Below are positions 6,457 to 61,426 of a stretch of 64,000 nucleotides of DNA, in pieces. Origin of the DNA: Octopus vulgaris (taxonomy: Eukaryota); the NCBI GenBank assembly GCA_951406725.2, contig OX597816.1, positions 161,014,001-161,078,000 on the forward strand. The letters are read 5' to 3'. A program made the position numbers and the translations under genes. The notes below the pieces were generated by a model. The model saw nothing but the letters and a program-made list of their open reading frames with translations, made no database searches and was not told the origin of the DNA. Every line of letters begins with the position of its first letter. The first letter of the stretch is position 1.

Positions 6457-7296
6457 TATCACATAAAGCTAGAGATGGGAGCAATGTCCTCCCTTGCAAA
6501 TGCTATATACATACACAGACTGTGTGTCGTTAGCCAGCTGGAAAAGATGTTTTCCTGGGGCTAAAACAACAGTAGCATCCTCCTTTGCAGGACGGCCACT
6601 TGATGTTGGCATATAAACATAACTAAACTATAAACATTCATACATATCAAATTGAAGAAAATAGATTGGAGGTACTGATCTTATCTACCTGTATATCTCA
6701 TCAACCTGTATATCTCACTATTATGAGCACACCACACAATAAAATATAATTTTGTACACTGTCTCTTTACAATTAAGGCTGTCAGTTACTTCAAAGAATT
6801 CACAAAGCCATTTGTAATTTTGGCACTGGTCTTTGTGATAATAAATTTTCACTGTTAGTCTCTGATTCTAGGGGGAGCCAGCAGATTTAGTTGAAGATGA
6901 AATATGCCATTCAACTTTTCTTCTATTTTCTATCATTTGTTCTATTCAATTATAGTTTGTCTCCCATCCTCTTTCCACTTGGGAAATCAATCTTTCACTG
7001 ACAGCCTATTTTGCACTATCAACAAATACTGATTATCCAGTTATAATCCTACCTAGTGAAGGCAAATGGCTCAATGGTTAGAGCTCACAATCATGAGGTA
7101 GTAAGTTCGATTCCCAGACTGGGCTGTATGTTGTGTTCTTCAGCAAGTATTCAGTACATCAGTCATTGACTTATTTTCTCCAAAATTCATGCCACTGACC
7201 TATTTGAACAATCATACTCAGCTTCTTCACATCCTTTTTTTTTCTGCTTAAATTCCATATTCCACATACTGGCATGCCAATAACCATTGTACTTCT

Positions 7297-7707
7297 AAGG
7301 CGGTGATCTGGCAGAATCGTTAGCACTTCAGGCAAAATGCTTAGCGGTATTTCATCTGTCTTTACTTTCTGAGTTCAAATTCTACCGAGGTCGACTTTGC
7401 CTTTTGTCCTTTTGGGGTTGATAAATTAAGTACCAGTTGCGTACTGAGTTCGATCTAGTTGACTGGCCCCCTCCCCCAAAATGTTGGGACTTGTCATAGA
7501 GTAGAAAAGAATTTTTAAAGCAGCGATCTGGGAGAATCGTTAGCATGCTGGGTGAAATGCTTAGCGGTATTTCATCTGCTGTTACGTTCTGACTTTGCTG
7601 AAGTCGACTTTGCCTTTCATCCTTTTGCATACTGGGGTTGATCTAATCAACTTGTTCCCTTCCCCAAAATTTCAGGCCTTGTGCCTAGAGTAGAAAAGAA
7701 ATGAATG
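7297..7707 (+). mobile_element. Tandem pair of family A SINEs with target-site duplication
   Basis: ACCATTGTACTTCT at 7283-7296 and ACCGTTGTACTTCT at 7708-7721 flank the pair. Confidence 0.8.
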
Positions 7708-8340
7708 ACCGTTGTACTTCTGCTTTTTCATAAATGAATTTTGCTCCAAATTTTGATACTTGGTCTAGCTAACTTCTTTCTGCTCCAGTTCTTTCTGCTA
7801 CTTCTGTTTGACAAAACTAATAGCATGTTTTTCAATATATAGTCATTTAAAATCACACCAGCATAAAAGATATTTTCATTGATGTATTGAAAGCAATATC
7901 TCAATTTCCTGTATTCTGTAGAAGTGTAATTAAAAGCTTGTGTTCGCAGACAAAAGAAGGTGGGATTATTTCAGTTATAAAGCTGTAAGATATATGTAGA
8001 ATATAAACATGGCTACTGTTGCAACAGATAGATGAGACATTATACAGTATGGAATTTTCTCTGAATTCGCTTTTCAGATTTAATTTTCTCTAAAAGATGC
8101 CTTACTTTACATGAAGTAAAATTTGATTCTAATTTATATAGATGCTATTTTCACTTCTGAGTTCAGGAATTTGTGTTAGAAAGGGATATAATTTTGCAAA
8201 ATAAAAGTCCCAATGTAATATATGCCTTGCAGGAAGACGAAACCTAAAGAAGTGTATGCATATATATGTACAAACACACACACACACAAACACATCAGGC
8301 ACATGCCATCAATAATTATATATATATATATATATATATA

Positions 8341-8640
8341 GGGAGAATTCACTAAAAAACAAAAGACGAAGACAGGTGGTGTAGACAACAAACAGATGTA
8401 TTAGTATAATGCTCGGGAAGTGAAAAAGTCTTTAACATTTCAAGCCTACGCTCTTCCACAGAGAGGAACACAGAAAGAAACACGGAGATAAATGAAGAAT
8501 GTGTAGTGGCTAGCGATCTATCATGGTGAATGCCAGACAGAAGGGTCACACAGGAGAGCTAGGGAGAAGGGGAGATAATAAAGTAGTGGTGATTCCAAAA
8601 TGAAGGTGCATGTGCATGTGTATAAGAGAGTTTGTATGTG
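8341..8640 (-). mobile_element. Non-autonomous pLTR-like element with A6U hammerhead motif (8430-8465)
   Basis: Minus: CTCT CTGTGGA A GAGC-GTAG-GCTT GAAA TG TT AAAG. Same family at 18899-19102, 28085-28235 and 57080-57190. Confidence 0.65.
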
Positions 8641-9721
8641 CATGTGAAGAAAGCTGGTGATCTTAACGTGTGTGTGTGTGTATGTGCAGATGTAAAAATG
8701 TGGGTCTGGGAAGTGGTCACAGTGCTGATGTGTGCTTGGTGGTGTGTTGTGATGTGATGTTTTGAGTGGTATGGTGGTGTAAGATGTAGTGGTGTGTGGT
8801 GTGATAGTGTTGGGAAGTGGGGGAGGCGAGAATGGGGAAAACAAGTGTGAGTTAGGCTGAGGGTGGGGGTAGAGGTGGGTAGGTGGGTAGGTGGAGGTAG
8901 GGATGGGGTATATGGGAGTGGGTGTAAAGGATGGGGTGGGGTGGGATGGGGAAGGATAGGGAAGGTGGGGTGGAATGTGTAGGGGTCGAATGTGTAGGGG
9001 TGGGGTGGGCTTACGAGAGAGGGGTGACGATGAAGGGGAAGGAGGTGGGTAGGAGTGAAGAGAGAGAGACACACACACACACATGCACACACACACACAT
9101 GCACACACACACACATGCACACACACACACACATGCACACACACACACACACACACGAAACATTCCACATATTTTTGTTAACTAGGCAAATGACACTTGT
9201 CTTGGATAAATATGTGGTATTGATTCCAAAACCCCTATCAGTTTTGAGTTATGATGTGCATTTCACCAAATCCTGCTGTGAAAGGGAAAAACATTGGTTC
9301 AACCATAGGAACCCATCGTAACCTAATCTTCTAATATCATGCTGTCTGCTATAAACATCACCTCTATTCCAAAGTACGTAGTTTCTGTCTTCATGTTCTT
9401 TCTTTACCTTATTGCTCAGTATCTTTATTATCAGGTATACGTTTACAAGCAGTCTGAATATTTCTATCAGATAATATTTTTCTCGTTTTGCATTTTCTAA
9501 TTCTGGCAATTTAGAATGAAAAATGAAACACCATCAGCCTTTTACTTCTTTTCTACTTAAAAAAGATACCTATTTTTGTTTTATATTGCCCTGCTTGCTC
9601 GTTATGAGGTATATTTTAATTGCTTAACCCATTCAAGGCCATAATTCAACTATAAGTATTATTTATAAACTAGCTGCCCCTATGATATTACAATGAGAGT
9701 TACCGGGATTTAAGCAACTGT

Positions 9722-9845
9722 AATGAAAGTTTCAAGGATCAAAGTTTTAGTCATAAAATTACTGAGTTCAGAGTTACTAGGATTAAAGTTACAAGGGTCA
9801 GAGTTTCTAGGGTCAAAGTTACTGTAGTCAAAATTACAAGAAGCT
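9722..9845. repeat. Degenerate 15-bp minisatellite (~8 units, consensus ~AAAGTTACTAGGGTC)
   Basis: AAGTT/GAGTT/AATT recur with a 15-nt period. Confidence 0.7.
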
Positions 9846-10184
9846 GTTTCCAAGGAAAGTAAATTTCCCCCATGGCCCATACATATACATACCACAAGCC
9901 ACTTTCAGTTTCTATCTACCACATCCATACTCAAGGCTTTGGTCAGCTTGGAGCTATAGTAGAAGACACTTGCCAAGGTGCCACATAGTGGGACTGATCT
10001 CAGAACCATGTAACTGGGAAGCAAATTTCTTAACCTCCATGCTATGCCTATATACATCATGTTTGTCTGTTGGTATGTGTGTGCATGTGTGTGTGCACCT
10101 ACACCAGTATAAGTGACTGTCACTGAAAAATACAAGCTTTGGATTTAGATGTTTTAGAATATACAAACTGAAAGGCAGTGAGCC

Positions 10185-10259
<75 letters not shown>

Positions 10260-60542: not shown

Positions 60543-60595
60543 TTTTGTCAAAATATTTTCGTTGCTTTGAGACTGCAACCTGTTCACTGACAAAA
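60543..60595 (-). ncRNA. Hammerhead-like motif with swapped G3:C8 core
   Basis: TTTTGTCA GTGAACA G GTTGC-AGTCTCAAA-GCAAC GAAA ATAT TT TGACAAAA; within element ~60420-60631, which has a short inverted tail. Confidence 0.7.
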
Positions 60596-60871
60596 TTCCA
60601 TGCTGCATCATGGAATTTTGTTAGTGAACACATGTGTGTGCACATACACACATATATGTATATATGAGAATGTATATAATCATTTTACTTGTTTCAGTAA
60701 TTTGATTGTGGCCATGCAGGAGCACCACCTTTTTGTGGGAAGATGAATGGAAGCATGACATCACCATCACTAGTGATCACTCCAAATACCATGATGTTGA
60801 CTGGGTGTTTGATTTTTATCACCCTTGGTACATGTCCTCAGATTGCCCTGCTCTCAGATTGGCAATGAGGG

Positions 60872-61140
60872 CCAGTCAGACAGTACTGGCATCGACCACG
60901 TTCGAATGGTGCTTTTTACGTGCCACCTTCATGAGACCAGTCAGACAGTACTGGCATCGACCACATTTGAATGGTGCTTTTTACGTGCCACCTTCATGAG
61001 ACCAGTCAGACAGTACTGGCATCGACCACATTTGAATGGTGCTTTTTACGTGCCACCTTCATGAGACCAGTCAGGCGGCACTGGCATTGACCACGTTCGA
61101 ATGGTGGTTTTTACATGCCACTGGCATGGGTGCCAGTCAG
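60872..61140. repeat. 65-bp tandem repeat (4+ units) of the family D 5' module
   Basis: Units start at 60872, 60937, 61002, 61067 and 61133. Confidence 0.92.
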
Positions 61141-61196
61141 GTGGTATTGTCATCACCCATGACAACGACAACAACAGCCTGGTCTGTCACATGACA

Positions 61197-61237
<41 letters not shown>

Positions 61238-61244
<7 letters not shown>

Positions 61245-61426
61245 GTTGTATACTGTCAATTTAACGTGACAGTAGGTGATTACACCACTGCTGTTTAGCC
61301 CTAGGAAGCATCGACGCTCCCTGATGGCTTCGACACATTTTTTTCCATCAGGAAGCGTCGATGCTTCCTAGGGCTAAACAGCGGTGGTGTAATCCACCGT
61401 TAAATTGACAGTATACAACCATTCTA
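61238..61426. mobile_element. Near-perfect fold-back pLTR 3' fragment
   Basis: ~85-bp inverted arms; shares TAGGGCTAAA and its hairpins with the 6.1-6.6 kb element. Confidence 0.8.

Follow-up and report, generated by a model that had tools for sequence, protein, structure and literature searches.

Introduction

Metazoan non-LTR retrozymes are described as non-coding units of about 350 nt that carry a type I hammerhead ribozyme (HHR) with a weak, palindromic stem III, have a GC content under 50%, occur as monomers and tandem arrays, and are proposed to be mobilised by Penelope-like elements (PLEs). In the parts of the accounts cited, these features match the octopus repeats described here (PMC7229834; PMC7761336; Li et al. 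2026, bioRxiv 10.64898/2026.07.22.740005). Reported mussel units are 350-390 bp long, against 340-366 nt here. According to the portion of a 2020 review cited here, animal retrozymes have no conserved motif pointing to a mobiliser (PMC7761336). The structures accompanying the published metazoan retrozymes, as far as these sources present them, are single-sequence MFE folds, whereas a covarying fold, linked to two fixed insertion ends, is common to at least 13 diverged representatives of the repeats analysed here. In Xenopus, homology between retrozymes and PLE pLTRs has been reported (Li et al. 2026, bioRxiv 10.64898/2026.07.22.740005); in contrast, we found none to the coding PLEs sampled here.

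A second comparison is PAc, the Poseidon PLE of Anolis carolinensis (Frangieh et al. 2024, PMC11167929). The purified anole protein depends on RNA that follows the HHR, and its RT starts at two internal sites that match genomic tail ends. The likeness to the present elements lies in the order of an HHR and then a protein-required RNA region (a putative one here), in two 3' ends bounding a tail, and in internal RT initiation, which in PAc falls in an AC-rich stem-loop. The required region of PAc is the first 172 nt of the ORF, whereas the element here is non-coding. The tail is 30-40 nt in PAc, against about 47-60 nt here, where it pairs back across the first insertion end, and the main text on PAc gives no comparative structure (PMC11167929).

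The EN+ PLEs of the Neptune and Hydra clades, as far as described in the sections cited, show the same 5' truncations, partial tandems, inverted head-to-head copies in which a single arm carries the tail, (TA)n as a common target and an HHR near the 3' end (PMC8557442, PMC3846280). They differ in that the elements here have no RT or GIY-YIG ORF, and the coding families sampled here lack the H2-H3-P5-H4 arrangement described below. In rotifers, pLTR sequences are reported to be enough to mobilise a host gene in trans (PMC3846280).

Four families of non-coding hammerhead repeats

The window is a 64,000-nt stretch of the Octopus vulgaris genome (assembly GCA_951406725.2, contig OX597816.1, positions 161,014,001 to 161,078,000). 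Its initial annotation described a module of four ordered hairpins, H1 to H4, downstream of an HHR in one pLTR lineage. The hairpins were confirmed at 6477-6612 (+), with an inverted twin at 6130-6281 (-), at 20025-20165, at 51410-51546 and, as an H3/H4 pair on both strands, at 61237-61482. The assignment to a pLTR lineage did not hold, as every module-bearing copy examined is a non-coding retrozyme unit of about 350 nt and the coding PLEs sampled lack the module.

The four window copies are members of four high-copy families (A, B, C and D) of non-coding type I HHR repeats, i.e. non-LTR retrozymes. About nine further families were found, which gives 13 family representatives. The nine units measured are 340-366 nt long, with GC 0.39-0.43 and a longest Met-ORF of 30-56 aa in each. 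By-eye inspection revealed no LTR, PBS or PPT in the units, and they contain no ORF for the telomerase-like RT and GIY-YIG domain that define an autonomous EN+ PLE. The families bear the insertion marks of PLEs (5' truncation, partial tandem, inverted 5' copy and optional tail), and tandem, partial-tandem and inverted head-to-head forms occur across them. Family C includes a head-to-tail array on contig C4 of about 10 units of 355 nt, with an HHR in consecutive units; outside family C only partial tandems were seen. Genomic density is about one insertion in every 100 kb, estimated from 97 unbiased stretches (964 kb) of which 9 were positive. A degenerate H2-H3 pattern had no match in JGI metagenome contigs. 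Contigs of four runs under three organism codes cover the family C unit, a type of evidence that cannot show transcription, strand or circularity.

The HHR core, stem II and GAAA-N-UH are present in natural units of all 11 families folded, with a core change in one J copy and one M copy. HHRs had been noted upstream of the module in two window elements; both cores are there, and full-length copies of all four window families also carry an HHR. The family C copy (51237..51607, +) comprises one 357-nt unit plus a 14-nt terminal overlap and terminates at the second of two fixed insertion ends, called end 1 and end 2 below. Its type I HHR (51339..51399, +) has the core TTGACAA at 51354-51360, the motif GAAAC-TGCA-GTC with a palindromic minimal stem III, and a predicted cut after 51386. 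The core U3:A8 is covariant in 30 of 30 family C loci, a variant also known from S. mansoni PLEs (PMC4209133) and seen in this genome's Neptune-like family. The family A copy (6343..6625, +; module 6477-6612) is 5'-truncated and stops at end 1. Its HHR core is CCGAGGA at 6419-6425 (U4>C here, CTGAGGA in most others), with GAAAC-CTAG-GTC and a predicted cut after 6450. Head-to-head with it lies an inverted copy (6080..6341, -) that has an HHR, the module (6130-6281) and a tail, and runs to end 2. The family B copy (20026..20178, +) is 5'-truncated just after the HHR and ends at end 1. Family D is represented by an inverted arm (61237..61343, -) with H3 and H4 that ends at end 1 against (TA)n, and by a direct arm (61345..61482, +) with H3, a partly deleted H4 and the tail, ending at end 2, also against (TA)n.

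A larger predicted fold with covarying helices

The predicted RNA fold that at least a dozen families have in common is larger than the four hairpins and includes them. In the family C copy, all on the + strand, a predicted hairpin H7 (51269..51288; of the type CAGTGA..TCACTG in most families) lies between the tail end and a predicted rod (51306..51437) with the HHR at its apex. The rod is closed by the predicted helix P0 (51306-51315 with 51428-51437), whose 3' strand is the TTGCAAA stretch. There follow H2 (51444..51462) and H3 (51465..51495), the latter with an outer stem, a conserved 4x3 internal loop and an inner stem in which 5 of 6 pairs have changed on both sides. The stretch CAGTA(A/G)C pairs with the PLE-type tail to form a helix, P5 (51503..51576), here between 51503-51510 (CAGTAAC) and 51569-51576. 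P5 encloses H3b (51513-51525), H4 (51527-51546) and a single-stranded stretch that contains end 1 (about 51560). The tail runs from end 1 to end 2 (51561..51607, 47 nt) and holds the 3' strand of P5 and the hairpin H5 (51581-51595), which is conserved and has no compensatory change in tree-aware counts on either alignment.

H2, H3, P5 and H4 covary across the 13 family representatives. In a plain MAFFT alignment of these (A4, mean pairwise identity 59%), 21 of 37 pairs have changed on both sides, a number reached by 0 of 500 column shuffles, while slid controls gave 4-10. The covariation first noticed by eye thus exceeds chance also when phylogeny is modelled: in A4, 20 same-branch compensatory events were counted against 6.7 +/- 2.3 expected under a home-made tree-aware null (maximum 14 in 1000). 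The strongest signal is P5 (10 same-branch events against 2.2 expected). The alignment fitted to the covariance model (A6), and hence to the structure, gave 29.4 events against 7.1 +/- 2.5, again under a home-made null, with 11.5 against 1.7 for P5 and 8.1 against 2.5 for the inner stem of H3, which is not significant on the plain MAFFT alignment (2.0 against 2.6). RNAalifold, which was not supplied with the structure, recovered H2, the outer stem of H3, P5, H4 and H5. In an unbiased helix scan P5 ranked first (8 bp, 90% paired, 7 compensatory types), a rank matched in 1 of 400 neutral simulations and there only by a 5-bp helix. The evidence is comparative and not thermodynamic, because the module alone folds only modestly stably on the + strand (single folds, z = -1.0 to -3.0).

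The TTG(C/A)AAA stretch, at first read as a linker, would be a strand of P0, whose predicted partner lies upstream of the HHR. Cognate P0 duplexes have an energy of -16.5 kcal/mol against -9.5 kcal/mol for non-cognate ones (permutation P 5e-5), the cognate pair being the best in its own row in only 4 of 11 families. H1 (51412-51430 in family C, predicted) competes with the rod. Its predicted pairing probability is about 0 in the circle and in the linear monomer of 9 of 11 families; it is predicted to form in F and I and, when the upstream strand is removed, at 0.5-0.9 in 6 of 11 families. The initial chain of four hairpins joined by linkers therefore survives in part: covariation backs H2, H3 and H4, the linkers are strands of helices, P5 and the predicted P0, and H1 in the intact monomer of those nine families is predicted to yield to competing pairings. 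In the two window copies with the HHR cores given above, the ribozyme does lie upstream of the module, and H1 starts 24-27 nt past the predicted cut, not about 20 nt.

Rfam searches with full units of families C, E and B gave best scores of 10-17 bits, far under gathering thresholds, and a whole-window scan placed none on the module among the 150 of 303 matches listed. Neither tRNA, 5S, 7SL and snRNA nor other Rfam families showed similarity at E up to 10. Origins from tRNA, 5S or snRNA, as well as SECIS and H/ACA identities, were considered and had no Rfam support. Literature searches found no published description of the fold. The view that this is a selected structured RNA beside an HHR in a PLE-type element, without an Rfam match, thus stands.

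Bases that are unpaired in the fold, namely the H3 internal loop, the TT of the H4 loop and the bases at end 1, are conserved in 11-13 of the 13 representatives. A conserved internal loop and junction would suit a second ribozyme of a new kind (ligase or nuclease), another early suggestion, in an element that already bears one ribozyme. We regard this as highly improbable, given that the Rfam searches matched the module to no ribozyme family, the unbiased helix scan gave no covarying pseudoknot, and copy boundaries do not cluster inside H2-H3.

Departures to G-U and to A-C are equally frequent (28 against 24; 49 against 45), so wobble pairs fix neither the strand nor whether RNA or single-stranded DNA is under selection, and folds of the reverse strands are at least as stable (z -1.7 to -3.3). 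Both results would fit a structure at work in antisense RNA or cDNA, on the opposite strand or in single-stranded DNA, for instance as a substrate on which a GIY-YIG endonuclease resolves the insertion and sets the two ends. The endonuclease of D. virilis is reported to need the tail for recognition (PMC11167929), and an antisense template has been proposed for PLEs in the part of that study cited here (PMC3846280). Such a role is nevertheless rather improbable: the HHR is on the + strand with the rod extending its stem I, truncations run 5' on the + strand, and PAc RT initiates on sense RNA in vitro (PMC11167929).

Insertion ends inside the fold

Across eight families, with loci taken as best BLAST hits and not as a random draw, 105 of 310 3' ends fall at alignment columns 129-140 (mode about 137), inside the P5-closed junction (end 1), 185 lie at or past the tail end (end 2) and 20 elsewhere. 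End 2 sits about 47-60 nt 3' of end 1, and the spacing from H4 to end 1 is constant in the eight families. A (TA)4 follows 0 of 17 ends in B, 1 of 20 in K and 5 of 7 in E, and these family-specific flanks of end 1 may reflect several mobilisers. The 5' starts of copies, in contrast, do not peak at the HHR cut site and become more frequent only over a broad zone, from about -30 to +20. Family A rows at +150 to +190 were disregarded, since a (TA)n stretch in the reference copy produces them artificially. Many copies run through the HHR into the previous unit. The module is tied in position to the 3' insertion ends, which argues against the suggestion that it chiefly caps the 5' end of the self-cleaved product.

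Since many copies stop at a single fixed position within it, the fold is likely the signal at which the RT binds and starts. Our preferred reading (probability roughly 0.6) is that a Penelope-type RT supplied in trans binds the RNA at this site and starts copying internally, in agreement with the RT-binding or template-positioning signal proposed at first. Copies that stop at end 1 lack the 3' strand of P5, which still covaries with its partner; the template therefore reaches beyond end 1, and initiation there would be internal. We envisage that dimeric HHRs would cut tandem transcripts and that the P0-closed rod would hold the resulting ends close enough to be ligated into a circle. Docked on H2-H3-P5/H4, the PLE protein would nick AT-rich DNA and prime at one of two places, the loop of the P5 junction for end 1 or, for end 2, a site about 47-60 nt 3' of it. 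Copying beyond one turn could yield partial tandems.

Conservation of the predicted structure extends over the entire circle and takes in the rod, P0 and H7, which lie at a distance from the insertion ends. This could mean that the fold serves the RNA itself, by releasing the HHR during co-transcriptional folding, by aiding the joining of the ends through a host ligase or by protecting the circle from nucleases. In that case the 3' ends would be fixed only where single-stranded RNA is open to an undiscriminating RT. Animal retrozymes are reported, in the part of the study cited, to accumulate as abundant circles (PMC7229834), and the coding PLEs sampled from this genome have two fixed ends although they lack the fold. 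We find this explanation fairly unlikely, as stability alone requires neither the conserved unpaired bases nor the constant spacing between H4 and end 1.

RT docking in trans would bear on how animal retrozymes borrow an RT and on where the two alternative 3' ends of PLE insertions come from, and the fold yields predictions at the level of base pairs, ready for compensatory mutation, at the exact insertion ends. Since PLE RTs form the sister group to telomerase RT, a defined RNA partner would be informative about template positioning in telomerase-like RNPs and about the making of compact cargo RNAs for PLE-based insertion. More tentatively, these retrozymes may possess a dedicated RNA domain for RT docking, retained or newly evolved and with phylogenetic support, whose junction of several helices is closed round the initiation site by the folded-back Penelope tail. 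Such a template-positioning RNA for a telomerase-related RT might use a circular template and might be absent from the coding partner, as the aptamer of a trans-acting parasite. The proposed domain has a functional likeness in the template-boundary and TERT-binding elements of telomerase RNA.

Search for a coding partner

A mobilising partner normally shares the recognised end. We looked for one with a GIY-YIG search, two Hydra-type EN searches, covariance model scans, nhmmer and tblastn of the module flanks, sampling the Neptune-like and Hydra-like PLEs among the families of this genome. None of the coding loci sampled carries the fold (covariance model scans; nhmmer over 424 kb of PLE loci), and at about 190 module loci no PLE ORF is continuous with a unit. 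The sampled coding elements have HHRs, and their 3' regions are short, AT-rich and unrelated. Among the proteins of this genome, young and intact Neptune-like (781 aa) and Hydra-like (778-aa frame) PLE proteins are candidate partners.

A fold confined to non-coding families would be explained if the module bound a host factor (a promoter factor at the DNA level, or a ribosome or RNP factor, comparable to SRP9/14 on the Alu domain) and the RNA was thereby brought to where it can capture new PLE protein, with no contact between the module and the RT. A stretch at H3 common to families A, C, F, K and M presumably resembles an A box. This reading appears improbable, since no B-box-like motif was seen, the Rfam comparisons above revealed no kinship to host RNAs, and paired covariation is unexpected for a double-stranded DNA promoter.

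Several candidate links between the module and coding elements were rejected. Module matches near ORFs (loci L109, L118, L046 and L228) are independent insertions and not coding partners. Weak R2 matches in a Neptune-like 3' UTR (19-20 bits) are antisense and AT-rich, a P5-like pairing in the 781-aa Neptune family, judged by eye, is inconsistent between subfamilies, and a by-eye likeness of a Hydra-family tail to H5 plus end 2 did not score.

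Retrozyme families in the window and the genome

The window repeats are non-LTR retrozymes, non-coding repeats with a hammerhead ribozyme (HHR), and they bear insertion marks of Penelope-like elements (PLEs). The hairpins H1-H4 of the initial annotation (the module) are present in the window copies at 6475, 20025, 51410 and 61238 (only H3 and H4 in the last). These copies do not form the single pLTR lineage proposed there; each belongs to a separate high-copy family (A, B, C and D, respectively), with at least 3148, at least 2385, at least 2993 and at least 618 candidates in a first-look search of the genome (2.8 Gb, 227 contigs), lower bounds in which related families may share candidates. 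The HHR is present in full-length copies of all four families. In two of the window copies the module is preceded by a type I hammerhead whose one-pair stem III carries a palindromic loop, with predicted cuts after 6450 and after 51386; the module does lie just 3' of the ribozyme here, but H1 starts 24-27 nt after the cut rather than the suggested ~20 nt.

Additional families came to light when R1, a covariance model built on the module, was applied to PLE flanks and to spaced genome stretches; searches with four of them gave 2724 candidates for family E, 2252 for F, 2734 for K and 1239 for M. In natural partial tandems, the units are 340-366 nt long with a GC content of 0.39-0.43, and none has a methionine-initiated ORF longer than 56 aa. 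Identity between units of families is 54-83%, and family C includes an array of ~10 units of 355 nt each. Copies occur as 5' truncations, partial tandems or inverted head-to-head pairs, with the tail (the stretch between two fixed 3' insertion ends, end 1 and end 2) on one arm only, for example at window 6080-6625 and 61237-61482. With a second module model (R2), 15 matches of at least 60 bits fell in 9 of the 97 unbiased stretches surveyed (964 kb), an insertion density of roughly one per 100 kb.

The U3:A8 covariant of the HHR core (families C, E, G and H and loci L097-L117) is fixed in families C (30/30) and E (20/20) and in a young Neptune-like PLE. The related families A and F retain C3:G8, and family M copies mostly have C3 with A8.

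A fold that extends beyond the four hairpins

The conserved structure extends beyond the module. Circular folds of natural units predict one plan in nine families: a long HHR-tipped rod, H2, H3, a junction closed by the long-range helix P5, and the extra hairpins H5 and H7. The family C window copy is predicted to adopt the same plan when folded alone. Two supposed linkers are helix strands: CAGTA(A/G)C forms the 5' side of P5, its partner being the tail, and TTG(C/A)AAA is the predicted 3' strand of P0, the long-range helix closing the rod. Within the ordered series H1-H4, covariation is seen in H2, H3 and H4, but H1 is at most a conditional hairpin, because 9 of 11 intact monomers are predicted to lack it and 6 of 11 to form it once the upstream strand is removed. 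No Rfam family, hammerhead models included, matches the retrozyme units, in agreement with the earlier view that the module is not a named motif; that it is a second ribozyme we consider very improbable.

Covariation across families

The RNA fold is real and selected. Thirteen representatives, each a single copy, were aligned in a plain MAFFT run (A4). From this alignment RNAalifold recovers H2, the outer stem of H3, P5, H4 and H5, and P5 comes out on top when all helices are scanned without bias. In A4, 87.8% of the pairs are paired (31-47% in slid controls) and both sides have changed in 21 of 37, a paired-change count reached by none of 500 shuffles. Because kin inflate pair counts, the tree was kept in the event counts: 20 same-branch compensatory events were observed against 6.7 +/- 2.3 expected (maximum 14 in 1000) under nulls that, here and below, are home-made and not those of R-scape. 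Paired bases change together across copies, as first noted. P5 accounts for 10 events (2.2 expected), H4 for 2.5 (0.3), H2 for 2.3 (0.7), the H3 outer stem for 2.0 (0.3) and the extra hairpin H3b for 1.4 (0.3); H5 has none in A4, and the H3 inner stem, misregistered by gaps, has 2.0 (2.6 expected). When 27 copies were aligned to the covariance model, and so fitted to structure (A6), the H3 inner stem reached 8.1 versus 2.5 expected and the total 29.4 versus 7.1. A helix as good as P5 arose in only 1 of 400 neutral simulations. P0 is not alignable by column and was therefore tested by duplex energies, which are -16.5 kcal/mol for cognate and -9.5 kcal/mol for non-cognate strands, with the cognate partner best in its own row in only 4 of 11 families.

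Departures to G-U and to A-C are equal in number, and the data are thus compatible with an antisense or single-stranded DNA role. A fold that acts on the other strand, which the missing excess of G-U over A-C favors, or that serves as an endonuclease substrate, is in our estimate improbable.

Insertion ends and a possible platform

Ends were mapped at 178 loci of eight families, with duplicate and array loci dropped, and 310 alignments reach the 3' half. A total of 105 stop at columns 129-140 (end 1), a position ~15 nt downstream of H4 and 10 nt upstream of the P5 3' strand; 185 end at the tail end or run past it, and 20 end elsewhere. For family C, end 1 and end 2 lie at window 51560 and 51607. 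The selected template reaches past end 1, because the P5 3' strand, although missing from copies that stop at end 1, covaries with its partner. There is no spike of 5' starts at the HHR cut; starts are scattered and many copies read on past the HHR into the unit before it, the pattern expected of a circular or multimeric template. That the fold serves circle processing and stability is conceivable, if unlikely.

We favor, with a probability of about 60%, a role of the H2-H3-P5/H4 domain as the platform on which a PLE reverse transcriptase (RT)-endonuclease acting in trans would recognize the RNA and initiate internally; cleavage, circularization, binding and priming are each steps that we infer. 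The anole Poseidon PLE (PAc) is similar in that its protein depends on RNA lying 3' of the HHR, and its two start sites are internal and correspond to the tail ends (PMC11167929).

(TA)4 follows end 1 in 6/11 copies of family D, 5/7 of E, 6/15 of A, 5/12 of F and 3/9 of C, and in 0/17 of B, 1/20 of K and 1/14 of M; this target preference differing by family possibly reflects different mobilizers. A 5'-truncated family C piece has been captured and amplified by a separate repeat, which has a 3' hairpin and a CTAG end and is presumably Helitron-like given its resemblance (L163:1671-1782, minus strand; L289:2564-2678, plus; L309:399-531, minus; L065:1-45, plus). The piece comprises the P5 5' strand, H3b and H4 and stops at end 1, and the repeat is found in 3 of the 97 unbiased stretches.

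Within this element class, which is already known together with its PLE link and tail, the RNA fold is apparently undescribed so far. Neither a covarying fold common to retrozyme families nor back-pairing of the tail across the first initiation site is described in the covered portions of PMC11167929, bioRxiv 10.64898/2026.07.22.740005, PMC7229834, PMC4209133, PMC8557442, PMC3846280 and PMC7761336 or elsewhere in the literature searched. For animal retrozymes, PMC7761336 reports no conserved motif pointing to a mobilizer.

Coding Penelope-like elements and other window features

The main weakness of the PLE platform reading is that the fold was found in no coding PLE: the 3' regions of the Neptune-like and Hydra-like families sampled gave no score with R1, R2 or an nhmmer profile. 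Binding of a host factor by the fold is improbable in our judgment. Coding PLEs of the genome include two Neptune-like families, one of them young with ORF1 and a 781-aa frame, as well as Hydra-like families; these names rest on motif resemblance to PMC8557442 and not on a tree. All coding families sampled have HHRs and short, AT-rich 3' regions.

The young Neptune-like PLE (L111-L117, e.g., G000:C6:133343500-133350000) has two ORFs, a coiled-coil-like ORF1 and an RT/GIY-YIG frame of 781 aa that is intact in many copies; its minimal HHR lies ~70 nt before the (TA)n-targeted 3' end. The 3' end of a young Hydra-like PLE lies at window 28334-29340 (plus strand); its family has 778-aa frames elsewhere in the genome and an HHR stem II insert of ~50 nt. 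An older Hydra-like 3' end with a degenerate HHR lies at 63030-63904 (minus strand), and the tail of this family has a CTCT..AGAG hairpin that is H5-like by eye and without score. A Hydra-like endonuclease fragment lies within 1.5 kb of 4 of 30 family M loci (L356, L360, L362 and L373), not continuous with the unit, which may reflect shared target sites.

Elsewhere in the window, a U4 snRNA match at 53231-53360 (plus strand) reaches 46.7 bits, where the gathering score is 46, and weak Pfam scores mark a transposase-like HTH fragment at 15572-15928 (plus strand) and LINE-like RT fragments at 34420-35328 (minus strand).
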